From positions 662,774-726,773 of the forward strand of contig NW_003314264.1 in assembly GCF_000143415.4 (NCBI RefSeq): a stretch of DNA of 64,000 bases. Reading direction: 5' to 3'. Made by a program: the position numbers and the translations under genes. Position 1 is the stretch's first letter; every line of letters begins with the position of its first letter. Below the pieces are notes generated by a model. It did no database searches. It had not been told where the DNA came from and saw only the letters and a list, made by a program, of their open reading frames with translations. Below, piece by piece: positions 2,041-45,527 of this stretch. The stretch is from Selaginella moellendorffii (Eukaryota; Plantae; Lycopodiophyta).

Positions 2041-2124
2041 AATGAGGAATTATTAAGATTTTTTTGATGTTAATACTTTATAGCCTCTTGAATATTACTA
2101 TTGTAAAAGCTATATATATGTTGT

Positions 2125-8338: not shown

Positions 8339-8999
8339 AAGCTCTATTTCGTTAAAGTGGGATTTATTCAGTAAAATGGGACTAGGTACAAATTTTCAAG
8401 TATTTGAAAATGACGTGAAATTATATGTTTTTCGTCCAGGGGCTAGACATATCTGGGGCATGGTGACTAGCGCGGTGACTTTGTGTCTAGACTGAGTCCA
8501 TCTGGTTGTATAATAAATCTCATTGTCAAGGTGAACAAGCTGAATCTGAAGCTAAAGAAGAGCGATGGCATGCGTGCACACACTATTTTGTTTGTTCATT
8601 GAGCGTGTGGTGAGCTTTCCAAGATGAACGTCATTCCTATTAGCCAGACATATAACTTAATGGTGAGAACATTTAGATATTATTCAATGTTATCTTTTTC
8701 TAACGAATCTAATTGTGAAGGTGTAGCAAGAGGCATTGCTAGTCTGGAGAAGTCATTTAACTCATTTGACCCTTAGTGTATTTTCATGAAACTAAATAAC
8801 ATTCATATTATTAAGGAATTTCTCTAGTACCTTTTTTTTACGACATAGAGGCTTGCATTTCTTTTTAAGGTGATTTAGTAAAAGGCCTGAGGGCACATGC
8901 CATTCTATTTCTCAGACCGGTATTAAGATATACTAGTGCAAAGGGAAAAAGGTATTTGATGATCAAGTAAATGGCATGAGGGCACACGCCATTATAAGC

Positions 9000-9272
9000 C
9001 TAAGCGCTAGTGGACACCTCCTTTTTGGTACTCTCAGCGGTACTATCATCCTTCTCCAGGTCAGTTGTTTTGCTTTGGATTGTTGTCTCTGACGTTACTG
9101 GGGCGTTCTCGATAGTTGTTAATGTTGCCGTTTGTTCAGAAAAATGATCACTTGGAGTATAGTACGGGGAGTTTGGAAGACTTATATATTCTACATCTTC
9201 ACCTATCTCCTTCTCCGTCTCCTTTTCTGCCTCACTTACAGATTTTGTGCTTGCCATGAGAACGCTCTTCAC
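9000..9272 (-). CDS. Small acidic, S/T-rich ORF downstream of the transposase (possible terminal exon or third gene)
   Basis: Open in E1 and E2 (35933-36205) with biased composition; deleted in E3; no recognisable domain. Confidence 0.35.
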   Translation of the reverse strand: MKSVLMASTKSVSEAEKETEKEIGEDVEYISLPNSPYYTPSDHFSEQTATLTTIENAPVTSETTIQSKTTDLEKDDSTAESTKKEVSTSA

Positions 9273-9970
9273 CCTAAAATATGGAGTTCATTGTGTTATA
9301 AAAGGAAACCAACACACACGCTACAAGGGAATGATGGTACATAAAGCACGTAAGCCCACAATATGGGTTTATGTGCCATTAATATGGGCCACACGCCATA
9401 TTATTAGATTTATACACGTGTGATTGGTAAATGCATATGTCACATCATCTTTGTTTTACCTCACACACTATATCAGGCCTAATGAACCATATCACATGTG
9501 CGCACATGCTATATATATGGAGAAGTATTATGCAAGGATAGAAAAATTCAATGCATGATTGTGGAGAGCAATGGCATGAAGCCACATGCTAAATAACATT
9601 TTAGAGAAAGAATTAAAATAGAAACATGCAAACAGTACTGAGTGGACCAAGACTTAGAAGTGCACAATTGAATCAGGTATTTCTAATAAATATTTCACTC
9701 ACCTCATATAGGAATGGCTACCACTCTCAAATGGCGTATCACCTCATGCCATCACCTCGCAATTTGTTATAACAATCCGATGAATTCATATTCAGCTTGT
9801 TCACCTTGAACTTTAAGTAAGATTTGCTAGAACAACTAAGAATTTATACTTGTTATTTGTATCATCTCACCTAGGAATGGCGTAAGGCCATATGCCATCA
9901 CGCCTCCTCTGATTCAGATTCGGATTGTTCACTTTGAAATAAAATACATTAGAAACTTAGTAAAGGAATA

Positions 9971-12770
9971 TAAATGAATCTCACCTTAAACCCGGGTTAT
10001 AAATGCTCTTGCTGCATCTCTTGCATGGTCTGGCAAGGTGATGGTGGCACTCTGCTTCCGCATCCAACCATGCACAACATTATCCACCGATATGCTCATG
10101 CTGGGATCCCTTGGATTCATCACTCATCTCTTTTCTAGGCAATCCTTCGTATATTCGGAACTTGGCTTGAACCACTCCACAGTTACATTGAAGGAGTTAG
10201 TTTCCGCGTCCTCCTCTGCATCAGTGATGCAACGCCCCACCCATATCATTTGTTTTTTATTACTGGGTCTGACAAGCACGACCATTCCTTTGCAGACCTG
10301 TACTGGATTGAATGCTGAATCCAGCTTCTTGTTCCTCGGCCCACAATAGTGATCCTCAACATCGTTATCTGTCACTGCATTTCCAGAGGACATTGTTCCG
10401 CTACTATCTGGTGCTCTGGGTTCTGGCCAAAAGGACTCTTCCAATTCTTCATATACAACCGGCCCATTTTGGATAGCAGATATAATCTTCTCCCAGTATT
10501 CGAGCAAAGGCTTGCACCTCTGAAAATAGGATTCTCCACCAAACACCAACCCCCTCTTCCAGAAGGCAATATGCTGTCTAATCCCGGCCACTATACTTTC
10601 CTGGTCTTTGAGTCCATCCATGTGCATCGGCCGTGGGGAACCCTGAGGAATCATAGGTTCCCCAGTTATGGGATCTCTCTTGAAGAATTCAATGCCGTCC
10701 ACTGGCAGCCACACTATGTCCCATTCTCTCATCTTGTACCTCATCACTGGAGCACTGTCACGCATGCTGAAATGAAACTGAAGAGGCTTGGAGTGGCCAA
10801 TCAGCGTTTCGGATCCATCCCTGATGTAGCCTTTTACAAACCCCTTAAAGTCTGGAACCTCTGTCACAAGTGCAGCTTCAACAGTGCCTTTGATGCAATT
10901 TTGGAATTCATCGTAGAGTTGTGGGAGGGTGAGGACATTGGATCGCCGGAGGGACTCTGCCAGGTGACTAAACATGGCATCAACGTCTTCATGAGTGTGC
11001 CCAACCATGAGAAAGCCAAGTCTAACCGTTTCAAATATGCCTTTGGCAACAAGCATCGCCAAGTACGCGAAGACGTACATCTTTTTGTTCTCACTGCCAG
11101 CATTGTTTGTTTGGAGCAGAAGATGGGGTGGAAGGCCACATCGGCCGCAAGAACTTCCTTGAGATTCTGCTTCGTTTGGATGAGGCTGTGCATTCACCGG
11201 GCGACCAGCCTCGTCGGAATGGCATGAGGCCTCACGTGATAACCCTACAATCTGACGGCCAACATATTCACTGGGATGGCATGGGGCCCCACGCGATACT
11301 GCAAGCCTTTGCTCCTCCTCCAGCTAAACCTTGTATGGGGTTTGATCGACAAGGGCCTTATGCAAGGGTTGGCCGTTTAGCTCAGTTTGCGCACTTTGTA
11401 GAGACCTTAAGTGTTTTGCTAGGGATGCAATCATCATGTTTGCACCCCCGCCACCCCATAGAGGTCCAAAGAAGTTCCCATAGTTCTGGGCACCATGCCC
11501 ATGAGCGATTATGCCAAACAAAGACACAGGCACCTGCATGGATGAAGAGATTGCCTTGGGGGCAGGATTGAGTCGAGGTAAGCACGTCTTTTTTTGGTCC
11601 ATTTTGTCGTGGATGATGCAGAGGTAAGAGTCAGGTCTCTCCATGGAGAGAATCCTGTTATGATAATATGCAGTCCTGCAGCTTCTTTGCTCGATGTTGT
11701 GGTCGAGCCGCCTTCTAACCAACGTCTCTCGCTCTTGAGCGCTGCAAAAATTCTTCGACAAAGCCATTTTGATAGCAGTGCACTCATCACACTTTGAAAA
11801 GCTGGAGTACTTTCCTATACTCACATCCCTGAACCTGTTGCTCCACAATCTACTAAATCTAGATTGGCTCAGCTTCTTGTAGCCATTACTCTGGAGTTCC
11901 CGATTCACATCTTCCAATATGGCCCCCTTGGTATACATGGAAGGGAGAACTTGTTGGGTGTCTCGTGTTCCATCTTCCAAGAGGCGGGTTTTATGTGGTT
12001 GCTGCTCGCTACATGTCTCGACAAACCTCTTGAAGATTGCCTCTCCATATACAACATGACCTCTGGTTTTGTGCGTACCGTCGTTCCCATGGACTGTCTG
12101 TTGAACCCTTTGTTCCTTGAACTCAGTTTTGATTCTGTAAAATGTGGTTTGAGGGACTCCATAAATGATTCTCCATGCCTTCATGCAGACCAAACCCCTC
12201 TGGAAGACCATGCTCCCCACTTGATGTTCTGAAGCATCAACAGATGACCGTAATGCCTCATACACAAAATTGCGAGCTGCCTTCCAGGACAATGTCTTGT
12301 ATCTTGCTCTCTCCTCTTCAATAACATCCCAATCAGCATGTTGACAGCACCTCCTCTTGCAACAAGCAACTGTCGAGACAATTCGAACCTCCATCGCCAT
12401 TTTCTACTTTTTCGGTTTGTTGCTCAGATCCCTTTGGCTGCGCTTTAGGAAGGTGTACTTTCTTTTCCCATGAAGAGATGTTCTATCATCAGTTGTAGTG
12501 GTGTTTGAGTGTGAATCCTTCACATTCTCAAACACTAAGTGCCTCAATTTCCACCGCACAATGCTTCCAATAGTCAGACTGTTTTTTTCTGTGTCAACAA
12601 CCTCTAAAATCGCAACTCTAATATCATCCCAGCCCAATTCTTGATTAGCAACCGCATCTCTTGGATTGACAACTGTGGCTAAGCCCTCGATCCATAGACA
12701 CAAGGGTCCCTTTTGCAACTCTCTTCCCACCATTCAAAATATAAACCTTTTCTCCAACCCTGAAGGCCAT
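9971..12770 (-). pseudogene. E1 Sola-type transposase, disrupted
   Basis: Motifs CCKRRC, VCMKAWRIIYGV, SKCDEC, HDKMDQKK, LQTNNAGSENK, GHTHEDVDAMFS; ~269-bp deletion near 12690 and several stops (e.g. 11324). Confidence 0.85.
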
Positions 12771-15299
12771 TCTGAAAGTGCAGAAAAGAAGTTAAAACCA
12801 TACAAAAAATGATTGGAGAATGGCCTAAATCATAACATACCAAACAACCTCAATAGCATGAGGCCACATGCCATTATTCAAACATGCTATTGACACCCAC
12901 GTGAAATTTTGCATTCACAAAATTGGCATGAGGCCTTATGCCATCTTGATATACACACAGCTGCAGGCAAGTAAAAACATACATGACAATACGCTAGCCA
13001 TGAAATTGCAAGGGCCCAAGATGGCATGTGGCCTCATGCCATTTCTAAATGTGGTCCTAAGCCATTCCATGGTGAACATACCAGGAAGCACAATTGCCGA
13101 ATATCAAGAGGAAGCGGTAGCCACACCAAAGACAGTGCCGCTTGCAACACCGCAACTACTCGTAGCGCCGCTCGCAACACCGCAACTGCTTGTAGCGCCG
13201 CTCGCACAAACTGCCACTCGCATAAACTGCCGCTCGCAATGGCGCTCACAATGCCGCAACCGCTTATAGACGCATAAACCACAACTCACAACGCCGCTTA
13301 CACAAGCAGCGCTCACTGCGCTCAGCGGAACCAAGAACACGGCGCACAAAAATGATAGACCTAGGAATGAGTTCAAGAATTCAAAAATAACACACGCTTG
13401 AACGTCACATCAAATCCTCTGACAAACCAGATCTTATGATTCCTCTGACAAATTTCAAACTGAGTAGCTTCTAGACTTTGCTGTCGGAGGTTGAACTTTG
13501 TCACATCATGTCCTTGCCTCGATCCAGCTATGCCATGTCAGTGATTCGAACTTTGCCATGCCATGTCAGCGATCCGCGCCAAGATTATTCGCCGTGTAAA
13601 GGAATAATTATGCTGTGTGTGTACGTCCATTTATGGCAATATAAGGCCACACGCCATTCAAAGAATAATGCTAGTCGAGCATTTTTTGGTGCATTTTTGG
13701 GTTCAAAATTGCATGAGCCCACACGCTATAAAGTTTACCTGTACCAAAAATAGAAACAGCTTTATTTACTTGGGAATTTAAGTGGTTGAGGCATTTTTAA
13801 ACTTACAAACACATGCCCTACTTACATTCCTTTGGTTGCTTAAAATTCAAAAATATTATAAACCTTTCTTTTTGCATTTTCAATGTTTTCAATTATGGTT
13901 TTTGATTTTCGTAGGACCAGCCTAGTAATCTATTTGCATCCCGTCATGTTTATAGCTAGCTTTAGTTTGTCCCCTTCGCTAGCCTGAGATACATCTGCTC
14001 GGCATCTGCCTCTTACAGCATTTGCCCAGAAAGGGCATCTTTCTTCACGCAGCATTTGCCACATGTTTAGGGTTTAGGGTTTAGCAATTCAGTAGCTTGA
14101 TAAACATGCAGATACAGAACTTGATGCAAAATCCTTGATATGTCACAATGCCCCTAGGACCATAAACACATTTCAATAGAGAGGGTCTTTTCATTTCATA
14201 ACTCCTTACGTAGATCTTGGTGAAACCAGAGTTAGTAAAGTTGGTTTCTTGTGATCCCGCATCTGATTATGATGTCCCTTTGCAATGTCGATGGAAAGGT
14301 CAATGCACACCAAACTGTAAAATCTTGGAGCAAAATAACGGTCGGATCAATGGCAAATGCCCCTGAAACATTGTAAGGCTCGTGTGGTCTCATGTGGTGT
14401 CCGATCGAGATGCTTCTTTGCAGGGTCATCAAGAAAGACATTGTATACCATTCTGTAAAATCTAGTTGCGATCTAACAGTTGGATCTCCAGAAAACTCAA
14501 AAAAATCTCGCGCGTGTCAGAATATTCTAGGAATATACTCCTATGTGCCCCTAAAATTGGCATGCGGCCCCACGCCATTCAAGAGATAACGCCAGATGAC
14601 GCCGAGCATTTTTTGGTGCATTTTTTGGGATCAAAATTGCATGAGCCCACACGCATGAACGTCACATCAAATCCTCTGACAAACCATATCTTAATTCCAT
14701 CTATAATTCCTCTAACAAATGGTATACATATAGCGAGGGTATTAAATGATATCCCAATCATGATCTTTCTTTTGGATTTCGCGTGCATGCAGTCCGAGGA
14801 ATGATGACGTTGCAGATTTCTTTTGGATTTCACGTGCATGCATGCGCGCGGCGATCCAGAAATTAATGGTGGCGCCCAAGTCCGAGGAATGATGATGTTG
14901 CGGGATTACCAACCGTCGTGACATTTCGCGCGTGTGAGGTTAGGTTTTGCATCGTACTCGCGCTCGCATCGCGCTCCCACTCGCGATCACGCTCACATTC
15001 GCGCTCATCTACCTTCTCTACAGGTTTCTCGTGTGCATCGGCGTCCACTCGCGCTTGCATCACATTCGCGCTCGTGTGCATCGGCATCCACTTCAAGACA
15101 CACCCAGTTTGTAACTTCGCCGCCAACTCCGCTGCCCACTCCGCCACCCACACGCAGCCCACTTGGCGTCCCGGGAGATTTCAGCGCCACTCTCCAACTG
15201 TAAGTGGCAGAGTAGCCTTGTTGCTACGATCCGCTGCACACACAGTGCACATTCGCCAGTGAGTCCGGCCTTGATTGTCACGCCTCCATTCGGCTTCAA
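12771..15299. promoter_or_regulatory. Divergent intergenic/promoter region of E1
   Basis: Lies between the two ATGs; GC-rich short tandem repeats at both ends (13135-13330, 14770-15160); duplicated blocks (13401/14658, 13677/14604); central TTTAGGG tract; several palindromes. Confidence 0.6.
14066..14084 (+). repeat. Interstitial plant telomeric repeat (TTTAGGG)x2.7 / telobox
   Basis: TTTAGGGTTTAGGGTTTAG; equivalent tracts at 30853-30871 and 44154-44185. Confidence 0.85.
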
Positions 15300-18200
15300 A
15301 TGGTAAGTCTTTTAGGCCAAGTAGAAAATGGCATGAGGCCACATGCCATTCAGTAGCAACATTGGCATGCACTGATTGGGCTCTCGAGTGCAGTCCGGTT
15401 ACAGATGGCGTGTAGCCTCACACCATCTTAGGATGCAGCCTCAAGACATCTGATGTAGTGGTGAATGGCGTGTGGCCTCACGTTATTTCCAGCTGCTAGA
15501 TTTTCATCTGTCAGCTCTAATTGTTATGCATTTCTGAACAGGCGAGGAATTGTGTTCTTCTTCCAGCCACTGTCAATGTGGATGCAGAGAAGGGGGAGGA
15601 GCTCACCAGTTGGACTTTCGGGATGGAAGGCAAGGATCTGAGGCTGTACAACACAGATGGTGGGAGAAAAGAATGCATGAGGATCCTCATCCAAGTGACA
15701 GACACTCCATGCAGTTCCATGCAAGAATATGGACTGGCACTTGTGGTAGAGACAGCGTCCGCCTTCAAGATCCACCTTGCACATCCTAGTGGCTTCCCGG
15801 AGGGGGGCAGTGGCTATGAGGAATTCCTAGAGGGAGCTAGGGAGAGGTTGTCCAGGAGGCCCACAATTTCAAAGACGCTGCGGGTCTATGAAGATCACAT
15901 GGAATCCACGGACCTCACCTACGGCGATGTTCAAAAACTATATTCCAACATTGAGCCGTTGAGAGTGCCTCCAGTTCGCGAAGCGAAGGGGAAGGGGGTC
16001 GATCTGGAAACTACCCCGAAGCAGAAAAGGGTGGTCAAGCTCAAGCCGACGTCTGACTCTCCTGCTCCAAAAAAGAAGCTACTCGGTGATGCCATTGCCT
16101 CGGGTTCGAACACTACACCCACCTAAAAGAAGTGCCGCAAAGAGCAGAAAGAGCAAGAAGAGGCAGGAAAAATCATCGCAGATAATAGTACTTGTTACTA
16201 TTCCAACAAAGTATATACAATCGACGTGAGCCGTATCGACATCCAAAGCAAATACAACCACAGGCTAGTATCTGATGAGTGGGTGGAGAAACTGAAGCAG
16301 AAGATGCTGGCAAGTCCAGTAACACCCGACATCGCAGACGTGATCCCCTACTACCGAACAATAAAGGGCGAGACGAGGTTTCCAGACTTGATCAATAGGA
16401 AGGTGTTGGACGATCAAAACATCCGGTTCTATGCCGTCTCCAGGCAGCATTCTAGCTTGGTGATGCAAGAGATAGTTGTGGATATTATGGTGGGCGAGGA
16501 GGTGAAGAAAGTCTTCAAGACAAGAGTTGTCCGCCTGATAAAAGGCAACTCGCCCCTCCGATCTATCATATACATCTCCCACGCGCAGAATGTCAAGCAA
16601 GAAACGTGCTACAAATCGGGTCTGCACGAGACATTGGCACGAACACGGAAGCTCTGGGTTCAACTGAAGAAGCCACAAAAACCAGGACAAGGACGTGCAC
16701 TAGCAACTAGCGCCTGGCAGGTAAGCCTCGTTGCATGTGGCATAGCATGTGGCCTCACGCCATTTCCATTGCAGGAATTCTCGAGTCTTCTCTCGAAAAC
16801 ACTGGGGGTCAATGACACACTCAGCATCCATAACATTCTACTCGCGACAAAAGTTGTTTTTGACAAATGGGTAGATGTGCTAAGGAGGTACCATGACGGG
16901 GAGTTGCTAAACTCAATGGGTGTGGATGATGGCCGGAAGCCCAATGATTTGAAGCTCAATCCTTGCATTTCTCGCGGTCTCTAGACGACGACGACCTTCT
17001 GACAGTGGCTAATGCTCTTCTACTTGGTGAGGTAGTCTTCAACAAGACCAAAATGACTCCCGGCCATATTGTGACATACGAGGACTTGTGCACGACTCTG
17101 AGAGCTCGTGCGCTATTAAAGGATTGGATCTTCGAGCAAATGGCCGTGGAGAGGGTGAGCATCGACACCACGCAAGAGATGATGGAAGCGCTGGAGTTGT
17201 CAAATGAAGACATCGACGAGTACGTGAAGGGGGCCCCCAAGTTCATCAATCTGCTGCGGGATGCCACGAAAAGTAAATCTGAGAAGTTGGATCAGTATCC
17301 AAATTTCATTAAGAGGGATGTCGACCGCCAGCTTCAGAACAGCTCGACCCCGCAGCAGAGGCCTATCGAGAACCTTACCGGGTATACGTGAATTCGGATG
17401 AGGATCAAAGGTGGAGGAGCATCCTTTCCCCGCGGAGATGAGCAAGTCTAGAACATCTTTTGTGTGATGGACTTCACAAACGAGGAGATCACTCATGCAG
17501 ACGAAGTCAGCTCCATCATTGACTTAATGGTGGGACTTGCGGAGGTGGAATCTTCAGTCCACTATATGATCTACGAGTTCGAATCCTATCACAAGTTCTG
17601 GAAGGCCTTGAACGAGGTGAAGGCTCGGTTGAAAGGCAAGGAGATGCGGGAGATCCATGGGATAATGGCTAAGAAAAAGATACCGACGAATGTCCTCATC
17701 TTCACACTCGCCCTTGTTATTGGTCCTGCAGCAGAGTGGGACTGGAGTGACTTCCCAGCTTCATTCGACAAGGCCGATCGAATTGATCTGAGGGAGGTCA
17801 ATTTACCCGTGCCTGAGGAACTGAAGATGGCTATAGAGCTTTCGAATCCAAAGAAAGCTCTAGGTGCAACATGGGAAATGCTCAGCTGGGTCTTCAACGC
17901 AATAGCGGGTGGGTCACCTGCTTCCGACTCCAAGGGCAAATGCATTGTTGAGTACAACTGCGGCGGACTATTCTTTCGAGCCGCACTACTCAAGGGTGTC
18001 CCGTGTGTTGCGGTGACAAACTCCATTGAAGAGGTGACTTCAATGGAGCATATAATTACAATTGCCAAAGAAAAACAATATCTTCTCTGCGAACCTGGTG
18101 AGTACGCACTTTAAGTTTAAATGTTATCTCACAAGCTCTGTATGCAGGAGCGTGGCCACCCCCAGATGCTGAAACAGCGTTAACAGCTACTGTTGAAGAT

Positions 18201-20927
18201 ACCCATGTTGGGCCGAGCTCACAACCTGCACAAGGTAAGGTAACGTGAGGCCTCACGCCATTTTGATTATAGATCGTTGTGAATATTCAGACACGAGGAC
18301 TGAAAAGCGCACTGGTGGCGCATCGAAGAAGGACAAACAGACAAGCAATAGGAAAAAAGGAGGTACAAATTATATTTGCAATGGCGTGTGGTCTCATGCC
18401 ATTCCTTGCAGGAGACACTTCTTCAAAGGCAAAACAGGCAAGCACCAACCAAGCTCAAACTGACAATGGTCATAAAAAGCGAAAGCACGTTGGACAGTCG
18501 TCGGGATCAGAGGCGTTTGATTCGAAAAGGAAGAAGGGCAACAAAAAGATGATAGGTAATGCCTCGCGGTTATGGCGTGTGTGCTCATGCCATTCATTGC
18601 AGATCAAGGGTTGAGTGAAAGCAACCAGTCACCACCTTCTGACTCAGATTCCTATGGCGGACTCCCCTTCCCCAATCTCAATGGAGAGGTACAATGGATG
18701 AGGGATGCTTTTCAAGTCAGGGCCACGTTTTTCTCATCTCGTCGTCTTCGAAGGGTGCAAGAACGTGCAGAAACCATGTTAAGACAGTCGGGTGAGGATA
18801 CGGTCCTAGGTCACGCACTAAAACAGGCTATGGATGTCTTGTATTTTGAGATGGAGACTCGGCCAGATGATTTTTCCAAGATGGTCCTAGAAGAACAAGC
18901 CATCTAGCCTGAGCAGCCTATGGAAGAAATGCAAGAGGGGGATGAGGAGCCAGAGAAAGATAATGAGCAGGAAGAGCAAAAGGACGAAGAGGAGGACAAA
19001 GAAGAGGAGGACGAAGAAGAGGAGGACGAAGAGGACTTCGATGGTCCTCACAATGGTGACGATCACAATAACGACGACGACAATGATGATGACGATGGCC
19101 AGCCTGAGGTGGCCAAAGAGCAGTGGAGGAAGGTCATACAAGACAAACCATCAGGTAAATAATAGTACATCCATTCCTAACCTTTTACCATTTCTAACAT
19201 TGTCCATGTAGGTCGCAGAGCAAATGGTAAGTAGAGATTATTCAGTTGAATTAAGATACAAACTCTAGCCTTTAGTGTCGAGGAAGGATAGTGCCAAGCA
19301 AGGGTCGAAACGTATGTCCAATCCTTCAGAATCAGCAGTGTGCCCAAGTGATATCGGTCCTAGTTCCTCAATAGCAATTGATGGTAAATACAGTATAGTC
19401 AATTCAATGTGCTAATGAGTTTGTTTTTAATAGCCAGTAGGGAGGATACCATCTCAATCGAAGGGAGATATTTGGACATGCATATGGATCCGCCAGTGGA
19501 CTCTACTTGCCTGCAAGAGTCATCAGAGCTGGTGGAGGCTACTATCCATATCAACGCCAAGCAAGCTGACCACGCTCCACTTGATGCTCCCATACCACTG
19601 AGTCAATCTTGTCCACGTATCCAACTGATGGTGACCAGGCGCCATTGGACCCGCATGAGGCTGCCCCAGCCACCGAGCCGGTCGTATCCTCATTTCCAAC
19701 GGACTCAACGTGTGCCCAATCGTCTGACTACGCACCATTGGAACCTCCCTACACCGCCCCTGCTGCCTGTTCGGTCATGTCCACTTTGCCAACGGAGGCA
19801 CCAGCTGAAATGGCGTGTGATCACACGCCATCAGAACCACCCCATGCCACTGTTGAGCCAGTTGTACCAGAGTCTACAGCTGAAATGGCATGTGCCCACA
19901 CGCCATCGGATGCGATTGACCCCACATTGCAGAGGAGAGTATTTCCGCCCTTCACGTTTCCTCGACTAAAACCCTCTCAACGACCATCGGGAGCACCATT
20001 CGCTAATATTATAGATGGTAAAATTGACTTGTACCATTTTTTATGCTGACGCATTTCATTTCAGAGTCACGGCGAAGGTACTGTATCGTTTTTTATCTGA
20101 ATGGTGTCTTTTTCTCCCATGAGCGTGGCTCGTCCTTGAATGTCACTGCACCCTCCAAAGCCTGCAGTCGCAAGTTGGTCAAAAGAGACAGATTCACATT
20201 AATCACACGGGAGAAACTACGGGATCTAATAATGACCATGCGACACTTAAAACAAAGGGCCGGGTTCAATTTGCAATTGGGAGTTTGGACATCCATGATG
20301 CGCCACAATGCATTAACGTTGCTACAGATGATGCACGATCAGATGCGAGTAATATTACCATTTGAATTTCTCCTAACGCAGGAGGATTGCTTGACTATGG
20401 TCCATGTGAGGGGTAGCAAGCCCATCTTCGTCAAGCCAGAGGCTGTAGTGATGAACCGGACTGCTAGGTCACTTGAAATCCTCATCATCGATGACTCACC
20501 GATTAAAACTGTAGCGAACACGCACACATATGCAGTGCACCCCATCTCTTGCAGTATGGAAACTAGGGAGAAGAAACCATATGTTCTGGGGGACCTTGCA
20601 AAACGGCTTGGAGCGATGGTGATAGAGAACCAACCAGTCTAGGAGGTGGCTGCAGAAATCAACCAAATGGCAGATGGAACGGTATATCAGAAGCCATTTG
20701 ATCGGACAGACACCAGTCATCATTTATGGCATGTATATTGTCTAGCCAAGCACTATCCGCATCTCCATAATCTGCTCAACCGGATGGGTTCTTCGACCAC
20801 TGAACATGAACGTGGACGTATTAGAGAAGAGATGGCATTACTATTGGGTTTAAATCCTGATAGTGTGGAGAGTGATGAAATTCCAAGATTATTGTATAGG
20901 CGTTGGAGGCAAAAAATAACAGTCTAA
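15300..20927 (+). pseudogene. E1 cargo gene, 11 exons, ~1640 aa (ParB-like / MTase-like / histone-fold-like / acidic / FCP1-like), disrupted
   Basis: ATG 15300; GT-AG introns 15303-15541, 16721-16774, 18098-18147, 18235-18290, 18363-18411, 18556-18602, 19155-19211, 19227-19275, 19384-19433 and 20018-20064 join the ORF pieces in frame. This copy has stops and frameshifts (e.g. 16124, ~16960, 18905, 20640). Confidence 0.75.
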
Positions 20928-21369
20928 GATGGCATGTATTTATTTAAAAATGTAACTTATTATGGCATGGGGTTCCATGCCATTGTATTAATATTAAAAG
21001 ACAATTCTTTGAGAGGATTTGCATTATACTAGAAGTGTTACAGCATGTTATTGGAAGTCTCCGAAGTTGTTTTATTAATAAGGGGAAAGTAAAGATTGAA
21101 TGGGGACTTGGGCTCCACCTAGACTCGGAGCAACTGAGCCAATATTAAAAGGATGGAAAGAAATTGGACAACGATGACAAGGAGAAGAGAGAGGTGAAGC
21201 AGTGGCAGGGGGAGGAGAAGTGATTGAGTAAACATTTCCTTGTTTAAAATAAAATGGCATGTGCCTTAATGCAGTTGAATTTTGTTATATTTATATACTA
21301 TATAAAGGTTTGGAAACCTTATTTTACAAGTGGGATAATGACAATTCCCACTTTAACGAAATAGAGCTT

Positions 21370-23496: not shown

Positions 23497-23937
23497 AAGC
23501 TCTATTTCGTTAAAGTGGGAATTATCATTATCCCACTTGTAAAATAAGGTTTCCAAACCTTTATATAGTATATAAATATAACAAAATTCAACTGCATTGA
23601 GGCACATGCCATTTTATTTTAAACAAGGAAATGTCTACTCAATTACTTCTCCTCCCCCTGCCACTGCTTCACCTCTCTCTTCTCCTTGTCATCGTCATCC
23701 AATTTCTTTCCATCCTTTTAATATTGGCTCAGTTGCTTCGAGTCTAGGTGGAGCCCAAGTCCCTATTCAATCTTACTTTCCCCTTATTAATAAAACAACT
23801 TCGTAGACTTCCAATAACATGCTGTAACACTTCTAGTATAATGCAAATCCTCTCAAAGAATTGTCTTTTAATATTAATACAATTGCATGGAACCCCATGC
23901 CATAATAAGTTACATTTTTAAATAAATACATGCCATC

Positions 23938-26900
23938 TTAGACTGTTATTTTTTTCCTCCAACGCCTATACAATAATCTTGGAATTTCATCACTCTCCAC
24001 ACTATCAGGATTTAAACCCAATAGTAATGCCATCTCTTCTCTAATACGTCCACGCTCATGTTCAGTGGTCGAAGAACCCATCCGGTTGAGCAGATTATGG
24101 AGATGTGGATAGTGCTTGGCTAGACAATATACATGCCATAAATAATGACTGGTGTCTGTCCGATCAAATGGCTTTTGATATACCGTTCCATCTGCCATTT
24201 GGTTGATTTCTGCAGCCACCTCCTGGACTGGCCAGTTCTCTATCACCATCGCTCCAAGCCATTTTGCAAGGTCCCCCAAAACATACCCTAGTTTCCATAC
24301 TGCAAGAGATGGGGTGCACTGCATATGTGTGCATGTTCGCTGCAGTTTTAATTGGCGAGTCATCAATAATGAGGATTTCACTTGACCTAGCAGTCCGGTT
24401 CATCATTACAGCCTCTGGCTTGACGAAAATGGGTTTGCTACCCCTCACATGGACCATAGTCAAACAATCCTCCTGCGTTAGGAGAAAGTCAAATGGTAAT
24501 ATTACTCGCGTCTGATCGTGCATCATCTGTAGCAACGTTAATGCATTGTGGCGCATCATGGATGTCCAAACTCCCAATTGCAAATTGAACCCGGCCCTTT
24601 GTTTTAAGTGTCGCATGGTCATTATTAGATCCCGCAGTTTCTCCCATGTGATTAATGTGAATCTATCTCTTTTGACCAACTTGCGACTGCAGGCTTTGGA
24701 GGGTGCAGTGACATTCGAGGACGAGCCACGCTCATGGGAGAAAAGGACACCGTTCAGATCAAAAACAATACAGTACCTTCGCTGTCATTCTGAAATGAAA
24801 TGCGTCAGTATAAAAAATGGTACAAGTCAATTTTACCATCTACAATATTAGCGAATGGTGCTCCCGATGGTCGTTGAGAGGGTTTTAGTCGAGGAAACGT
24901 GAAGGGCGGAAATACTCTCCTCTGCAATGTGGGGTCAATCGCATCCGATGGCGTGTGGGCACATGCCATTTCAGCTGTAGACTCTGGTACAACTGGCTCA
25001 ACAGTGGCATGGGGTGGTTCCGATGGCGTGTGATCACACGCCATTTCAGCTGGTGCCTACGTTGGCAAAGTGGACATGACCGAACAGGCAGCAGGGGCGG
25101 TGTAAGGAGGTTCCAACGGCGCATAGTTAGACGATTGGGCACACGTTAAGTCCGTTGGAAATGAGGATATGACCGGCTCGGCGGCTGGGGCGGCCTCATG
25201 CGGGTCCAATGGCGCCTGATCACCGTCAGTTGGATATGTGGACAAGATTGACTCAGTGGTATGGGCAGCATCAAGTGGAGCGTGGTCAGCTTGCTTGGCG
25301 TTGATATGGATAGTAGCCTCCACCAGCTCTGATGACTCTTGCAAGCAAGTAGAGTCCACTGGCGGATCCATATGCATGTCCAAATATCTCCCTTCGATTG
25401 AGATGGTATCCTCCCTACTGGCTACTAAAAACAAACTCATTAGCACATTGAATCGATTATACTGTATTTACCATCAACTACTATTGAGGAACTAGGACCG
25501 ATATCACTTGGGCGCACTGCTGATTCTGAAGGATTGGACATACGTTTCGACCCTTGCTTGGCACTATCCTTCCTCGACACTAAAGGCTAGAGTTTGTATC
25601 TTAATTCAACTGAATAATCTCTACTTACCATTTGCTCTGCGACCTACATGGACAATGTTAGAAATGGTAAAAGGTTAGGAATGGATGTACTATTATTTAC
25701 CTGATGGTTTGTCTTGTATGACCTTCCTCCGCTGCTCTTTGGCCACCTCAGGCTGGCCATCGTCATCATCATTGTCATCGTCGTTATTGTGATCGTCACC
25801 ATTGTGAGGACCATCGAAGTCCTCTTCGTCCTCCTCTTCTTCGTCCTCCTCTTCTTTGTCCTCCTCTTCGTCCTTCTGCTCTTCCTGCTCATTATCTTTC
25901 TCTGGCTCCTCATCCCCCTCTTGCATTTCTTCCATAGGCTGCTCAGGCTGGATGGCTTGTTCTTCTAGGACCATCTTGGGAAAATCATCTGGCCGAGTCT
26001 CCATCTCAAAATACAAGACATCCATAGCCTGTTTTAGTGCGTGACCTAGGACCGTATCCTCACCCGACTGTCTTAACATGGTTTCTGCACGTTCTTGCAC
26101 CCTTCGAAGACGACGAGATGAGAAAAACGTGGCCCTGACTTGAAAAGCATCCCTCATCCATTGTACCTCTCCATTGAGATTGGGGAAGGGGAGTCCGCCA
26201 TAGGAATCTGAGTCAGGAGGTGGTGACTGGCTGCTTTCACTCAGCCCTTGATCTGCAATGAATGGCATGAGCACACACGCCATAACCGCGAGGCATTACT
26301 TATCATCTTTTTGTTGCCCTTCTTCCTTTTCGAATCAAACGCCTCTGATCCCGACGACTGTCCAACGTGCTTTCGCTTTTTATGACCATTGTCAGTTTGA
26401 GCTTGGTTGCTGCTTGCCTGTTTTGCCTTTGAAGAAGTGTCTCCTGCAAGGAATGGCATGAGACCACACGCCATTGCAAATATAATTTGTACCTCCTTTT
26501 TTCCTATTGCTTGTCTGTTTGTCCTTCTTCGATGCGCCACCAGTGCGCTTTTCAGTCCTCGTGTCTGAATATTCACAACAATCTATAATCAAAATGGCGT
26601 GAGGCCTCACGTGACCTTACCTTGTGCAGGTTGTGAGCTCGGCCCAACATGGGTATCTTCAACAGTAGCTGTTAACGCTGTTTCAGCATCTGGGGGTGGC
26701 CACGCTCCTGCATACAGAGCTTGTGAGATAACATTTAAACTTAAAGTGCGTACTCACCAGGTTCGCAGAGAAGATATTGTTTTTCTTTGGCAATTGTAAT
26801 TATATGCTCCATTGAAGTCACCTCTTCAATGGAGTTTGTCACCGCAACACACGGGACACCCTTGAGTAGTGCGGCTCGAAAGAATAGTCCGCCGCAGTTG

Positions 26901-29556
26901 TACTCGACAACGCATTTGCCCTTGGAGTCGGAAGCAGGTGACCCACCCGCTATTGCGTTGAAGACCCAGCTGAGCATTTCCCATGCTGCACCTGGAGCTT
27001 TCTTTGGATTCGAAAGCTCCATAGCCGTCTTTAGTTCCTCAGGCCTGGGTAAATTGACCTCCCTCAGATCAATTCGATCGGCCTTGTCGAACGAAGCTGG
27101 GAAGTCACTCCAGTCCCACTCTGCTGCAGGACCAATAATAAGGGCGAGTGTGAAGATGAGGACATTCGTCGATATCTTCTTCTTAGCCATTATCCCATGG
27201 ATCTCCCACATCTCCTTGCCTTTCAACCGAGCCTTCACCTCGTTCAAGGCCTTCCAGAACTTGTGATAGGATTCGGAGTCGTAGATCATATAGTGGACTG
27301 AAGATTCCACCTCCGCAAGTCCCACCATTAAGTCAATGATGGAGCTGACTTCGTCTGCATGAGTGATCTCCTCGTTTGTGAAGTCCATCACACAAAAGAT
27401 GTTCTTGACTTGCTCATCTCCACGGGAAACGATGCTCCTCCACCTTTGATCCTCATCCGAATTCACGTATACCCGGTAAGGTTCTCGATAGGCCTCTACT
27501 GTAGGGTCGAGCTGTTTCTGAAGCTGGCGGTCGACATCCCTCTTAATGAAATTTGGATACTGATCCAACTTCTTAGCTTTACTTTTCGTGGCATCCCGCA
27601 GCAGATCGATGAACTTGGGGGCCCCTTTCACGTACTCGTCGATGTCTTCATTTGACAACTCCAGCGCTTCCATCATCTCTTGCGTGGTGTCGATGCTCAC
27701 CCTCTCCACGGCCACTTGCTCGAAGATCCAATCCTTCAATAGCGCATGAGCTCTCAGAGTCGTGCACAAGTCCTCGTATGTCACAATATGGCCGGGAGTC
27801 ATTTTGGTCTTGTTGAAGACTACCTCACCACGTAGAAGAGTATTAGCCATTGTCAGAAGGTCGTCATCGAATAGAGACCGCGAGAAATGCAAGGCGTTGA
27901 GCTTGAAATCATTGGGCTTCCGGCCGTCCTCCACACCCATTGAGTTTCGCAACTCCCCGTCATAGTACCTCCTCAGCACATCTACCCATTTGTCAAAAAC
28001 AACTTTTGTCACGAGTAGAATGTTATGGATGCTGAGTGTGTCATTGACCCCCAGTGTTTTCGAGAGAAGACTTGAGAATTCCTGCAATGGAAATGGCGTG
28101 AGGCCACATGCTATGCCACATACAACGAGGCTTACCTGCCAGGCGCTAGTTGCTAGTGCACGTCCTTGTCCTGGTTTTTGTGGCTTCTTCAGTTGAACCC
28201 AGAGCTTCCGTGTTCGTGCCAATGTCTCGTGCAGACTCGATTTGTAGCACGTTTCTTGCTTGACATTCTGCGCGTGGGAGATGTATATGATAGATCGGAG
28301 GGGCGAGTTGCCTTTTATCAGGCGGACAACTCTTGTCTTGAAGACTTTCTTCACCTCCTCGCCCACCATAATATCCACAACTATCTCTTGCATCGCCAAG
28401 CTAGAATGCTGCCCGGAGACGGCATAGAACCGGATGTTTTGATCCTCCAACACCTTCCTATTGATCAAGTCTGGAAACCTCATCTCGCCCTTCATTGTTT
28501 GGTAGTAGGGGATCACGTCTGCGATGTTGGGTGTTACTGGACTTGCCAGCATCTTCTACTTCAGTTTCTCCACCCACTCATCAGATACTAACCTGTGGTT
28601 GTATTTGCTTTGGATGTCGATACGGCTCACGTCGATTGTATATACTTTGTTGGAATAGTAACAAGTACTATTATCTGCGATGATTTTTCCTGCCTCTTCT
28701 TGCTCTTTCTGCTCTTTGCGGCTCTTCTTTTAGGTGGGTGTAGTGTTCGAACCCGAGGCAATGGCATCACCGAGTAGCTTCTTTTTTGGAGCAGGAGAGT
28801 CAGACGTCGGCTTGAGCTTGACCACCCTTTTCTGCTTCGGGGTAGTTTCCAGATCGACCCCCTTCCCCTTCGCTTCGCGAACTGGAGGCACTCTCAACGG
28901 CTCAATGTTGGAATATAGTTTTTGAACATCGCCGTAGGTGAGGTCCGTGGATTCCATGTGATCTTCATAGACCCGCAGCGTCTTTGAAATTGTGGGCCTC
29001 CTGGACAACCTCTCCCTAGCTCCCTCTAGGAATTCCTCATAGCCGCTGCCCCCCTCCGGGAAGCCGCTAGGATGTGCAAGGTGGATCTTGAAGGTGGACG
29101 CTGTCTCTACCACAAGTGCCAGTCCATATTCTTGCATGGAACTGCATGGAGTGTCTGTCACGTGGATGAGGATCCCCATGCATTCTTTTCTCCCACCATC
29201 TGTGTTGTACAGCCTCAGATCCTCGCCTTCCATCCCGAAAGTCCAACTGGTGAGCTCCTCCCCCTTCTCTGCATCCACATTGACAGTGGCTTGAAGAAGA
29301 ACGCAATTCTTCGCCTGTTCAGAAATGCACAACAATTAGAGCTGACAGATGAAAAGCTAGTAGCTGGAAATAACGTGAGGCCACACGCCATTCACCACTG
29401 CATCAGATGTCTTGAGGCTGCATCCTAAGATGGCGTGAGGCTACACGCCATCTGTAACCGGACTGCACTCGAGAGCCCAATCAGTGCATGCCAATGTTGC
29501 TACTGAATGGCATGTGGCCTCATGCCATTTTCTACTTGGCCTAAAAGACTTACCAT
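23938..29556 (-). pseudogene. E2 cargo gene (ParB-like / MTase-like / histone-fold-like / FCP1-like), disrupted
   Basis: Same exon structure as E1; the 603-aa ORF 26741-28552 spans the ParB-like and MTase-like parts; retains the HAD-type motif IVFDLNGVL near 24750; stop at 28730. Confidence 0.75.
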
Positions 29557-32166
29557 TTGAAGCCGAATGGAGGCCTGACAATCAAGGCCAGACTCACTGG
29601 CGAATGTGCACTGTGTGTGCAGCGGATCGTAGCAGCAAGGCTACTCTACCACTTACAGTTGGAGAGTGGCGCTGAAATCTCCCGGGACGCCAAGTGGGCT
29701 GCGTGTGGGTGGCGGAGTGGGCGGTGGAGTTGGCGGCGAAGTTACAAACTGGGTGTGTCTTGAAGTGGATGCCGATGCAAACGAGCGCGATACGAGTGCG
29801 ATGCGAGCGCAAGTGTGATGCAAGCGCGAGTGGACGCCGATGCACACGAGAAACCTGTAGAGAAGGTAGATGAGCGCGAATGTGAGCGTGATTGCGAGTG
29901 GGAGCGCGATGCGAGGGCAAATGTGTGAGCGCGAGTACGAAGCAAAATGCAAAACCTAACCTCACACGAGCGAAATGTCACGACGGTTGGTAATCCCGCA
30001 ATGTCATCATTCCTCGGACTTGGGCACCACTACTAATTTCTGGATCGCCGCGTGCATGCATGCACGTGAAATCCAAAAGAAATCTGCAACGTCATCATTC
30101 CTCGGACTGCATGCACGCGAAATCCAAAAGAAAGATCATGATTGGGATATCATTTAATACCCTCACTATATTTATACCATGAATGATTGGATATTCCAAA
30201 GCATCTAGAAGCTACTCAATTTGAAAATTGTCAGAGGAATTATAAGATCTGGTTTGTCAGAGGATTTGATGTGACATTCAAGCGTGTGGGCTCATGCAAT
30301 TTTGATCCCAAAAAATGCACCAAAAAATGCTCGGCGTCATCTGGCGTTATCTCTTGAATGGCATGGGGCCGCATGCCATTTTTAGGGGTACATAGGAGTA
30401 TATTCCTAGAATATTCGTATATGCGCGAGATTTTTTTGAGTTTTCTGGAGATCCAACCGTTAGATCGTAACTAGATTTTACAGAATGGTATACAATGTCT
30501 TTCTTGATGACCCTGCAAAGAAGCATCTCAATCGGACAAGACATGAGACCACACGAGCCTTACAATATTTCAGGGGCATTTGCCATAGATCCGACCGTTA
30601 TTTTGCTCCAAGATTTTACACTTTGGTGTGCATTGACCTTTCCATCGACACTGCAAAGGGACATCACAATCAGATGCGGGATCACAAAAAACTAACTTCA
30701 CTAACTCTGGTTTCACCAAGATCTACGTAAGGAGTTATGAAATGAAAGGACCCTCTCTATTGAAATGTGTTTATGGTTCTAGAGGCATTGTGACATATCA
30801 AAGGATTTTGCATCAAGTTCTGTATTTGCATGTTTATCAAGCTACTGAATTGCTAAACCCTAAACCCTAAACATGTGGCAAATGCTGCGTGAAGAAAGAT
30901 GCCCTTTCTGGGCAAATGCTGTAAGAGGCAGATGCCGAGCAGATGTATCTCAGGTTAGCGAAGGGGACAAACGAAAGCTAGCTATAAACATGATGGGATG
31001 CAAATAGATTACTAGGCTGGTCCTGCGATAATCAAAAACCATAATTGAAAACATTGAAAATGCAAAAAGAAAGGTTTATAATATTTTTGAATTTTAAACA
31101 ACCAAAGGAATGTAAGTAGGGCATGTGTTTGTAAGTTTAAAAATGCCTCAACCACTTAAATTCCCAAGTAAATAAAGCTGTTTCTATTTTTGGTACAGGT
31201 AAACTTTATAGCGTGTGGGCTCATGCAATTTTGAACCCAAAAATGCACCAAAAAATGCTCGACTAGCATTATTTTTTGAATGGCATGTGGCCTTATATTG
31301 CCATAAATGGACGTACACACACAGCATAATTATTCCTTTACACGGCGAATAATCTTGGCGCGGATCGCTAACACAGCATGGCAAAGTTCGAATCACTGAC
31401 ATGGCACAGCTGGATCGAGGCAAGGACATGATGTGACAAAGTTCAACCTCCGACAGCAAAGTCTAGAAGCTACTCAGTTTGAAATTTGTCAGAGGAATCA
31501 TAAGATCTGGTTTGTCAGAGGATTTGATGTGACGTTCAAGCGTGTGTTATTTTTGAATTCTCGAACTCATTCCTAAGTCTATCATTTTTGTGCGCCGTGT
31601 TCTTGGTTCCGCTGAGCGCAGTGAGCACTGCTTGTGTAAGCGGCGTTGTGAGCTGTGGTTTATGCGTCTATAAGCGGTTGCGGCATTGTGAGCGCCATTG
31701 CGAGCGGCAGTTTATGCGAGTGGCAGTTTGTGCGAGCGGCGCTACGAGCAGTTGCGGTGTTGCGAGCGGCGCTACGAGTAGTTGTGGTGTTGCAAGCGGC
31801 ACTGTCTTTGGTGTGGCTACCGCTTCCTCTTGATATTCGGCAATTGTGCTTCCTGGTATGTTCACCATGGAATGGCTTAGGACCACATTTAGAAATGGCA
31901 TGAGGCCACATGCCATCTTGGGCCCTTGCAATTTCATGGCTAGCGTATTGTCATGTATTTTTTTACTCGCCTGCAGTTGTGTGTATATCAAGATGGCATG
32001 AGGCCTCATGCCAATTTTGTGAATGCGAAATTTCACGTGGGTGTCAATAGCATGTTTGAATAATGGCATGTGGCCTCATGCTATTGAGGTTGTTTGGTAT
32101 GTTATGATTTAGGCCATTCTCCAATCATTTTTTGTATGGTCTTAACTTCTTTTCTGCACTTTCAGA

Positions 32167-35100: not shown

Positions 35101-35234
35101 CCAGCATGAGCATATCGGTGGATAATGTTGTGCATGGTTGGATGCGGAAGTAGAGTGCCACCATCACCTTGCCAGACCATGCAAGAGATGCAGCAAGAGC
35201 ATTCATAACCCGGGTTCAAGGTGAGATTCATTAA
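32167..35234 (+). pseudogene. E2 Sola-type transposase (consensus ~1020 aa), disrupted
   Basis: 571-aa ORF plus 365-aa ORF; TAG at 33880, 1-bp deletion near 34058 and TAG at 35151; catalytic motifs HDKMDQ, LQTDNTGSENKN, GHTHEDIDAMFS. Confidence 0.88.
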
Positions 35235-35932
35235 TATTCCTTTACTAAGTTTCTAATGTATTTTATTTCAAGGTGAACAATCCGAATCTGAATCAGAGGA
35301 GGCGTGATGGCTTGTGGCCTTACGCCATTCCTAGGTGAGATGATACAAATAACAAGTATAAATTCTTAGTTGTTCTAGCAAATCTTACTTAAAGTTCAAG
35401 GTGAACAAGCCGAATATGAATTCATTGGATTGTTATAACAAATTGCGAGGTGATGGCATGAGGCGATACGCCATTTGAGAGTGGTAGCCATTCCTATATG
35501 AGGTGAGTGAAATATTTATTAGAAATACCTCATTCAATTGTGCACTTCTAAGTCTTGGTCCACTCAGTACTGTTTGTATGTTTCTATTTTAATTCTTTCT
35601 CTAAAATGTTATTTAGCATGTGGCTTTATGCCATTGCTCTCCACAATCATGCATTGAATTTTTCTATCCTTGCATAATACTTCTCCATATATATAGCATG
35701 TGCGCACATGTGATATGGTTCATTAGGCCTGATATAGTGTGTGAGGTAAAACAAAGATGATGTGACATATGCATTTACCAATCACACGTGTATAAATCTA
35801 ATAATATGGCGTGTGGCTCATATTAATGGCACATAAACCCATATTGTGGGCTTACGTGCTTTATGTACCATCATTCCCTTGCAGCGTGTGTGTTGGTTTC
35901 CTTTTATAACACAATGAACTCCATATTTTAGG

Positions 35933-36205
35933 GTGAAGAGCGTTCTCATGGCAAGCACAAAATCTGTAAGTGAGGCAGAAAAGGAGACGGAGAAGGAGAT
36001 AGGTGAAGATGTAGAATATATAAGTCTTCCAAACTCCCCGTACTATACTCCAGGTGATCATTTTTCTGAACAAACGGCAACATTAACAACTATCGAGAAC
36101 GCCCCAGTAACGTCAGAGACAACAATCCAAAGCAAAACAACTGACCCGGAGAAGGATGATAGTACCGCTGAGAGTACCAAAAAGGAGGTGTCCACTAGCG
36201 CTTAG
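35933..36205 (+). CDS. Small acidic, S/T-rich ORF (E2 copy)
   Basis: Nearly identical to 9000-9272. Confidence 0.35.
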   Translation: MKSVLMASTKSVSEAEKETEKEIGEDVEYISLPNSPYYTPGDHFSEQTATLTTIENAPVTSETTIQSKTTDPEKDDSTAESTKKEVSTSA

Positions 36206-45306: not shown

Positions 45307-45498
45307 ATGGCATGAGGCCTCATGCCATCTTTGGCCCCTGACAGCCTATTGCCATATTCCTTTTGCCTTGCTGCAACTTTATATATTTTTGTATGGGTGA
45401 CTAGTCACGCCCACAAAAATATATACAGTTGCAACAAGGCAAATGGAATATAGCAACAGGCTAGCAGGGGCCAAAGATAGCATGAGGCCTCATGCCAT
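45307..45498. repeat. 192-bp foldback bounded by two 22-bp palindromes (E3 only)
   Basis: Imperfect inverted arms centred on GTGACTAGTCAC (45397-45408); each end is an AT(G/A)GCATGAGGCCTCATGCCAT palindrome. Confidence 0.9.
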
Positions 45499-45527
45499 TA
45501 GTGGTACCACTAATGGTATGAAGACTC

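Follow-up and report, generated by a model that had tools for sequence, protein, structure and literature searches.

Private 22-bp palindromes and a predicted ParB-like protein in a Sola-like DNA transposon of Selaginella moellendorffii

A 64,000-nucleotide stretch of the Selaginella moellendorffii genome (contig NW_003314264.1, positions 662,774 to 726,773; hereafter the window) carries three copies, A, B and C, of a Sola-like DNA transposon through which a 22-bp palindrome, ATGGCRTG-N6-CAYGCCAT, is dispersed. The element has two divergent genes, a transposase gene and a second gene (gene 2) whose predicted product resembles ParB-family proteins in its N-terminal part. We propose, with moderate confidence, that the palindromes are parS-like sites for this ParB-like protein of the element's own, which would mark the element and keep it expressed against silencing. 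The parts of this proposal differ in strength: that the gene 2 protein binds the palindromes is probable, and that the purpose is self-activation or anti-silencing, with methyltransferase-like and FCP1-like parts of the same protein as effectors, we put forward more tentatively, support of transposition being the main alternative.

A palindrome of fixed geometry confined to the element

The exact pattern was found 26 times in the window, 8 of these in 8565-21275, and in 0 of 100 shuffles; with up to two mismatches there were 61 matches in the window, 22 of them in 8565-21275, against a chance mean of 0.08. A weight matrix placed 26 sites in copy A, 26 in copy B and 22 in copy C (Markov null mean 0.15 per copy) and none in the 25,294 bp of window DNA outside the element copies, which served as the host background for the motif. 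These counts bear out an earlier sequence-only reading, which had described the palindrome as dispersed through an element at 8565..21275. Palindromes do occur in that range, but 21275 is not their limit: the motif continues to 49044 because the element is present three times, and every match in the window scan falls in 8565-49044.

Allowing each arm at most one mismatch, we counted a 6-bp spacer in 49 of 57 arm pairs (copy A, 17 of 21; copy B, 17 of 20; copy C, 15 of 16), as expected from the fixed spacer length claimed earlier, and all seven spacers quoted in that reading are present. Free variation of the spacer sequence, also claimed, is rejected, as a G stands at position 10 in 23 of 26 sites and a C at position 13 in 24 of 26, the centre having been unused in site picking. 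The conserved centre therefore makes the site two abutting 11-bp half-sites, ATGGCRTGWGG and CCWCAYGCCAT, in which half-site positions 1, 2, 4, 5, 7, 8 and 10 are almost invariant and positions 3 and 11 loose. As the best alignment of the terminal inverted repeat (TIR) to the half-site matches at only 5 of 11 positions, the TIR and the motif are unrelated, in agreement with the sequence-only reading.

The same reading had held that the palindrome is neither a tandem repeat nor a miniature inverted-repeat transposable element (MITE), and the fixed length, the dyad symmetry and the lack of a flanking direct repeat at 23 of the 26 sites agree with it; no tandem array was found at the palindrome sites of the window element. 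We rejected a MITE or tandem repeat accordingly, there being neither a target site duplication (TSD) or flanking repeat of the palindromes' own at those 23 sites nor a head-to-tail array, and an Introner origin was rejected as well. Sequence next to most copies had been described as unrelated, and some pairs of neighbouring sites do share flanks through local duplications (e.g., 8882/8971, 13708/14636 and 19810/19885).

Within copy A, 18 sites lie in non-coding DNA, four in gene 2 introns, two in a transposase linker and two in a low-complexity exon. Coding DNA makes up 59% of the element yet holds 4 of the 26 sites (P 5e-6), and each of these four is in a variable or low-complexity stretch; the sites thus avoid conserved coding DNA. 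Introns make up 8% of gene 2 yet hold four of its six sites (P 7e-4), four of the nine tiny introns having one each, and clusters of three sites stand directly upstream of each of the divergent genes. Sites within the genes break up the long runs of coding sequence, so that no gap exceeds 1,555 bp; this largest gap between site clusters (P ~0.05 under a null that respects clustering) is a weak hint of a near-regular grid of sites along the element. Contigs aligned to 15300-15500 showed few variants; the window's own variant aside, 6 substitutions and 7 indels lay outside the three sites there, all from a single run and perhaps errors.

The intronic sites bear on whether the palindromes might instead be RNA hairpins that signal in splicing or RNA stability, or else traces left by a tiny mobile unit of an intron-making or repetitive extragenic palindromic (REP)-like kind. 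Four sites are indeed found in very short introns, close to the 3' end, and of the five introns with a palindrome three gave more stable folds than shuffled sequence (z -1.7 to -2.5); the other two, however, showed no such advantage, 18 of the 26 sites lie outside predicted coding exons and introns, and positions 9 and 14 are complementary in just 8 of 26 sites, the would-be loop bases being conserved. As for a mobile unit, there are no target duplications beside the sites, and the first gene 2 intron is likely older than its site, because homologues are without its sequence (exactly its 18 residues) and several homologue frames end there. We therefore regard both forms of this explanation as very improbable.

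Readers of RY-type CATGCA or G-box CACGTG elements would be candidates if the palindromes were sites for host transcription factors gathered by the element, and the half-sites contain CATGC or CACGC, two of them CACGTG. This too deserves very little credence, given the strict 22-bp dyad, the lack of sites in host DNA, its gene-bearing stretch included, and the unrelated palindromes of related families described below. A site for a dimeric protein, as first suggested from the letters, is the best reading of the palindrome, supported by its fixed length, its dyad symmetry, its confinement to the element and a candidate reader of the ParB class; binding itself we infer.

Gene 2 as the candidate reader

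Splicing nine predicted introns out of gene 2 yields a single frame, as against 36-47 stops per frame in the unspliced sequence. The introns (window 16721-20064) are 47-57 nt each, and eight of the nine split a codon. A sequencing run taken as RNA by guess had no splice joints, and one of its contigs reads through a predicted intron, which weighs neither way. Copies A and B share a premature stop at 16124.

An exhaustive profile search with gene 2 gave 12 matches with E-values of 0.001 or less, none below 1e-10, from which one (P0113) was dropped as a repeat artefact. Four of the ten matches looked up carry names, these being Selaginella moellendorffii, which is the closest named relative, Riccia sorocarpa (two) and Calypogeia fissa; the name VANC was absent among these ten, no VANC sequence having been compared. 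Word-index searches (near and longer lengths), a phage tblastn and viral contigs gave no match to gene 2. By language-model features the core of the protein lies near two unnamed Streptophyta clusters (0.96 and 0.92) and weakly near phage fusions of ParB_N with N6_N4_Mtase (0.78-0.80), and its N-terminal part alone near DUF3723 (0.95) and a ParB_N cluster (0.92).

We modelled the copy-B gene 2 protein from a 17-sequence alignment. The predicted local distance difference test score (pLDDT) was ~55-70 over much of the N-domain and 60-86 in the helical domain (residues 211-310). Foldseek ranked Noc-DNA first and placed pNOB8 ParB, Spo0J, PadC, KorB and sulfiredoxin within its top 21, and many viral models named ParB matched with probabilities of 0.8-0.99. 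On structural re-alignment the top 10 rows were all of the ParB family or sulfiredoxin, the first unrelated fold following at Z 4.1. The scores were Z 8.4 for PadC (root-mean-square deviation, rmsd, 3.2; 97 aligned) and 8.1 for Noc-DNA (rmsd 11.4; 138 aligned), and, below the value of 8 under which the tool cautions that a score may reflect a common fold arrangement, 7.9 and 7.7 for pNOB8 ParB (rmsd 6.1; 183 aligned, residues 1-310) and 6.3 for KorB (rmsd 5.9; 193 aligned, residues 9-316). The N-domain is thus predicted to have the fold of the ParB/sulfiredoxin (Srx) superfamily, and its family alignment has invariant Q, H, N and R columns. The helical domain, predicted to be DNA-binding-like, aligns with those of KorB, pNOB8 ParB, Noc and Spo0J at rmsd 5.6-11.4, the recognition helix not being pinpointed.

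In the methyltransferase-like part we recognised by eye a degenerate S-adenosylmethionine (SAM)-type motif, VVEYNCGG, and no PP motif; a homologue (P0121) matches PF01555 at 2e-4, short of the cut-off, and structural alignment of this low-confidence part of the model (pLDDT mostly <50) gave no methyltransferase fold match. The FCP1/NIF-like phosphatase domain passes the cut-off in one relative (L013).

Several points weigh against reading gene 2 as ParB-like, beyond the Z scores below 8. The model has a mean pLDDT of 50 (33 for a single-sequence model), nothing in the Foldseek search reached an E-value of 0.001, and no match in Pfam, PHROGs, NCBIfam or PDB sequences names gene 2 as ParB. Where ParB and the other cytidine triphosphate (CTP) clamps have the nucleotide-binding motif GxxR, the gene 2 family has SGQHS or DGQHT, the arginine being missing.

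Bacterial ParB-parS, Noc-NBS, KorB-OB and BisD-bisS offer a comparable plan, namely a ParB-fold N-domain followed by a helical DNA-binding-like domain, with multiple palindromes on the same replicon, and BisD, a ParB-like clamp, has been described as activating genes of its own mobile element. Gene 2 differs in being eukaryotic and intron-bearing, in having GQHS for GxxR and in the lack of a ParA. Following this plan, a gene 2 dimer would bind the 22-bp dyad in the manner of ParB-family proteins at parS, NBS and OB; once docked, the protein would mark the whole length of the element and protect its expression from host silencing, the methyltransferase-like and FCP1-like parts serving as effectors. 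As the protein and its sites move as one unit, the palindrome of each family could drift to a sequence of its own, and defective copies could be served in trans.

Related elements, methylation and the purpose of the sites

We scanned metagenome contigs with the transposase alignment and took the best 80 of 470 confirmed matches (28 of 64 parts), the 80 loci amounting to 64 distinct insertions. The window's exact motif occurred at none of the 80 related loci, and direct searches of them with gene 2 pieces gave no match. A mismatch-tolerant scan, a strict one having shown none, identified four other palindrome families of 18-24 bp around related transposases (simulation nulls 0-2): CCCACGGGTG-NN-CACCCGTGGG, with 10 copies in 3 kb (L024); TTTGGCCAT abutting ATGGCCAAA, with 7-11 copies (L001); GAAATCTAGCAC abutting GTGCTAGATTTC, with 4-8 copies (L029); and ATYTRGTGG abutting CCACYARAT, with at least 3 copies in 29 insertions and up to 43. 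In a transposase tree of 66 rows, from which redundant loci and short matches were excluded, the last of these is confined to a single clade of 45 rows (support 100/98), whose loci have one common TIR and which we counted as one lineage; there are 124 sites in 118 kb inside these elements vs 4 in 166 kb past the right TIR. A complete 11.3-kb relative with an ATAT duplication (L011) has 39-43 sites, all 39 strict ones inside it. Decayed gene 2 fragments are kept at two loci, L079 and L057 (22.3, 9.8 and 5.7 bits; decoy maxima 1.6-3.6), and at L057 the fragment is divergent from the transposase, as in the window element. It is thus shown that private palindromes recur across the transposase group, with a link to a ParB-like gene in two of the five families. 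At 13 of 15 loci examined outside the main clade there was no palindrome family; these are all 1.1-5.7 kb and mostly transposase only.

The relatives' palindromes are often arrayed between genes with periods of ~24, 47-50 or 140 bp (L011 5690-6930; L024 49-350; L038 4150-5020; L001 520-1730; L029 7040-7850), those of the window element being dispersed. L011 also has three tandem FCP1/NIF-like phosphatase genes at 2100-5200, on the strand opposite to the transposase and divergent from it.

That the motif follows the transposase tree would suit the transposase itself as reader, through extra N-terminal domains, much as TnpA reads the subterminal repeats of En/Spm. Transposases can be sequence-specific activators, as far as the cited part of one study goes (10.64898/2026.08.24.746577), the window transposase has a weak N-terminal Transposase_23 match (E 0.002), and L011 has many sites and no ParB-like gene detected. 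Against this, the TIR is unrelated to the motif, and the element ends have their own short repeated word, which would suit a transposase; TnpA motifs, as described, cluster at termini, whereas the palindromes here span the element; and L011 has decayed, perhaps being a deletion derivative that depends on a protein supplied in trans. We consider a transposase reader quite unlikely. The parallel with TnpA, as that account presents it, is that a protein encoded by the element recognises repeated motifs specific to its family and switches on cognate copies, the difference being that TnpA is transposase-derived and acts at termini (10.64898/2026.08.24.746577).

Alternatively, the ParB-like protein may bind the sites in a mechanical role, coating and compacting or bridging the 13-kb element so that the transposase pairs its distant ends. 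The near-regular grid over the entire element would fit this, as would the last site of the ATYTRGTGG clade, which in most loci begins ~92 bp short of the right end, a 113-bp repeat period being frequent, and the conserved place of DUF3723, the nearest language-model neighbour, as cargo of giant Starship elements (10.1101/2021.12.13.472469, in the part drawn on here, from which the word ParB is absent). However, clusters of three upstream of both genes and sites in introns fit it less well, pure bridging would presumably not need methyltransferase-like or FCP1-like parts, and a 4.3-kb relative (L036) has both TIRs yet one site at the stricter cut-off, a profile finding more. Such a role is unlikely in our view.

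We lean instead, as said, towards self-activation or anti-silencing because of the VANC-like placement of the sites, their clusters upstream of both genes, the domains attached to gene 2 and the retention of CpG. As to placement, VANC21 binds introns, intergenic and terminal non-coding DNA of VANDAL21 (PMC5735166, in part), and family-specific motifs enriched in the element's non-coding DNA are a VANC-type trait seen here as well. The VANDAL accounts, so far as drawn on here (PMC5735166, PMC10398659), further resemble our element in having an accessory gene beside the transposase and short motifs, peculiar to each family and different between related ones, that lie in introns and in intergenic and terminal DNA. 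VANDALs differ in being Mutator-like, with 8-9 bp motifs in tandem repeats, and in that demethylation is reported as proven for them, that of the window element being hypothetical.

As to methylation, the R/Y positions of the half-sites, which were unscored, read CA 28, CG 20, TG 1 and CC 1 of 50. Decay of CpG alone would yield TG as often as CA. Since the upper-strand C is kept and the lower-strand C may be T, the protein might contact the methyl group of T or 5-methylcytosine; if it accepts either base on the lower strand, methylated copies would be open to it as well. Mere tolerance of a purine would fit the counts too. The earlier suggestion that the toggle makes binding sensitive to methylation or deamination thereby gains a specific basis in these counts, and we keep it conditional. 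CpG observed/expected is 0.57-0.87 in the element's non-coding DNA vs 0.16-0.34 in neighbouring host repeats; the host gene region stands at 0.59, and long related loci range over 0.15-0.41.

A number of results from the copies and relatives count on the other side. The high CpG of the element may also reflect youth or coding constraint. The resident copies show decay with a CG and CHG bias and therefore were likely methylated, and no drop in C-to-T decay was found at or near sites among the three copies, an indirect proxy for methylation loss that is thus negative: the share of CG columns that vary was 5 of 42 inside sites, 24 of 111 in the first 50 bp around them, 16-17% from there out to 600 bp (51-600 bp) and 7 of 74 farther away. 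Local protection of the sites from deamination was rejected on this ground. The sequence-only reading had set conservation of the arms against that of their neighbours as a test, and the arms proved no better conserved (12 of 301 columns variable, 4.0%, vs 501 of 11,465 outside, 4.4%), in three copies that are too close and too recently decayed for testing selection on the arms. Among the relatives, no ParB-like gene was detected in L011 despite its 39-43 sites, gene 2 fragments remain at just 2 of the 80 loci, and of 12 segment-by-locus tests with gene 2 no more than 3 scored above all 90 decoys.

A ParB-like accessory protein acting on inverted repeats has already been proposed for Plavaka of the red alga Bostrychia moritziana, where inverted-repeat arrays adjacent to the ParB-like gene PAG3 are put forward as its self-binding sites (10.1101/2025.02.11.637652); the plant Sola-like case is a new variant. 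As far as the portion of that preprint used here shows, the likeness extends to a eukaryotic DDE transposon, a ParB-homologous accessory protein, nearby inverted repeats and an N6-methylase-type accessory domain, and the Plavaka accessory cassette (PAG2, PAG3) moves between transposon superfamilies (10.1101/2025.02.11.637652). Plavaka is described there as differing in its tandem repeats beside PAG3, its ParB fused to a 2-oxoglutarate (2OG) oxygenase and a separate methylase gene with a SET domain; the window element has a land-plant host, a Sola-like transposase, a single predicted protein that combines ParB-like, methylase-like and FCP1-like parts, and sites that are dispersed, in introns and even in coding linkers. 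Iyer et al. 2016 treat ParB-linked methylases in algae and phages, a plant Sola-like case not being among those in the part considered. Our literature search, whose range did not extend to subscription journals, Repbase or bioRxiv supplements, turned up no paper that describes a ParB-like gene or internal palindromes for Sola elements of plants.

How an anti-silencing protein on short motifs affects a whole multi-kilobase transposon is an open question, spreading from such motifs being called enigmatic in the VANC literature drawn on here (PMC10398659), and a ParB-type protein would offer a ready load-and-slide mechanism; here a candidate protein and a sharp 22-bp site are both identified in one element. 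The case would extend the ParB-accessory idea from red algae, and from the DUF3723 of fungal Starships, to land plants, and several orthogonal plant protein-palindrome pairs would serve locus labelling or epigenetic-state editing. A broader extension, which we rate as rather unlikely, is that transposons of early-diverging land plants use a bacterial-style ParB/parS module as an epigenetic weapon, such that a nucleotide-gated sliding clamp would load at private palindromes, read 5-methylcytosine as T, find silenced copies and spread with a methyltransferase-fold reader and an RNA-polymerase-II phosphatase-like domain, each family having its own palindrome.

Transposase, element copies and neighbouring features

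The transposase matches Pfam DUF7869 (E-values 1e-38 to 1e-43) and no other Pfam family, and its named relatives include those of liverworts and animals. The aspartates of HDKMDQ, QxDN and GHTHEDxD are invariant or nearly so among 21 sequences, and we take them to be the DDD catalytic triad. In copy A the gene is interrupted by a premature stop (11324) and has lost 269 bp at 12688. Its N-terminus (window 12100-12770) comprises two similar beta-rich segments, with weak Transposase_23 or SH3-like matches, followed by a cysteine-rich motif, and these segments might form a second DNA-binding module.

Table 1. Coordinates of the element copies, genes, predicted domains and palindrome sites in the window
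Feature	Position	Strand	Details
Element copy A, Sola-like DNA transposon	8339..21369	+	13,031 bp; TIRs, 4-bp duplication, empty site
Element copy B	23497..36865	-	13,369 bp; 26 sites; flanking 4-mers mismatch
Element copy C	36875..49270	-	12,396 bp; 22 sites; 942-bp deletion; duplication AAAG in element orientation
Left terminal inverted repeat	8339..8364	+	
Right terminal inverted repeat	21343..21369	-	
Transposase, DUF7869	9974..12770	-	~1,020 codons, single frame in three-copy majority
Gene 2	15542..20927	+	Predicted 1,643 codons after removal of nine GT-AG introns; start codon not located
Predicted ParB/sulfiredoxin-fold N-domain of gene 2	16181..16606	+	Structural alignment, language-model neighbours
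Predicted helical domain of gene 2	16607..17126	+	Aligns with ParB-family DNA-binding domain; 54-nt intron inside holds site 16742
N6/N4 DNA-methyltransferase-like region	17440..18070	+	Degenerate motifs; lead only
FCP1/NIF-like phosphatase domain of gene 2	20065..20924	+	PF03031, E 7e-4 in copy C, under cut-off
Seven palindromes 3' of transposase	8565..9898		8565, 8882, 8971, 9491, 9571, 9731, 9877; weight matrix
Two palindromes in frame, variable transposase linker	11219..11297		11219, 11276
Nine palindromes between the divergent genes	12853..15486		12853, 12923, 13021, 13708, 14557, 14636, 15328, 15405, 15465
Four palindromes in predicted 47-56-nt gene 2 introns	16742..18593		16742, 18240, 18381, 18572
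Two palindromes in frame, low-complexity gene 2 exon	19810..19906		19810, 19885
Two palindromes 3' of gene 2	20962..21275		20962 and degenerate 21254

The TIR is ~26 bp long, its 28-nt arms being 96% complementary when one TSD base is counted. Copy A is flanked by the duplication AAAT at 8335-8338 and 21370-21373, which an empty paralogous site near 52004 confirms. Sola elements are described, in the part of the literature used here, as having a DDD-type transposase, a 4-bp TSD and a short TIR, as reaching 15 kb and as being found in moss (PMC10741241), and an AWWT target as the hallmark of Sola1 (PMC3845634). The DDD transposase, 4-bp TSD, short TIR and size of our element fit that description; an accessory ParB-like gene and internal palindromes, both present here, do not figure in those parts of the descriptions (PMC10741241, PMC3845634). 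The AWWT target is seen in copy A (AAAT) and in L011 and L079 (ATAT), the AAAG of copy C differs, and the target duplication is mismatched in 3 of 5 complete relatives. We label the element Sola1 tentatively, from its transposase motifs and with some help from the AWWT target of copy A.

In self-comparison copies A, B and C are 96.9-97.6% identical, with mostly transitions between them. Copies B and C are arranged head to tail with 9 bp between them, and copies A and B tail to tail with 2.1 kb between them. The host repeat left of copy B does not continue on its right, which together with the mismatched 4-mers hints that a deletion or rearrangement accompanied transposition within a cluster of local hops. 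Both premature stops (11324 in the transposase, 16124 in gene 2) and several indels are common to copies A and B and missing in C; a copy that was broken beforehand has therefore probably been duplicated or mobilised in trans.

Plant-telomere-like TTTAGGG units lie between the divergent genes at 14067-14085, and such a telobox could attract host telobox-binding factors. Outside the element copies, the window has a host pentatricopeptide repeat (PPR) gene at 54425-56086, with no E or DYW tail among its Pfam matches, and, by eye, a tRNA-like stretch at ~59045-59125.

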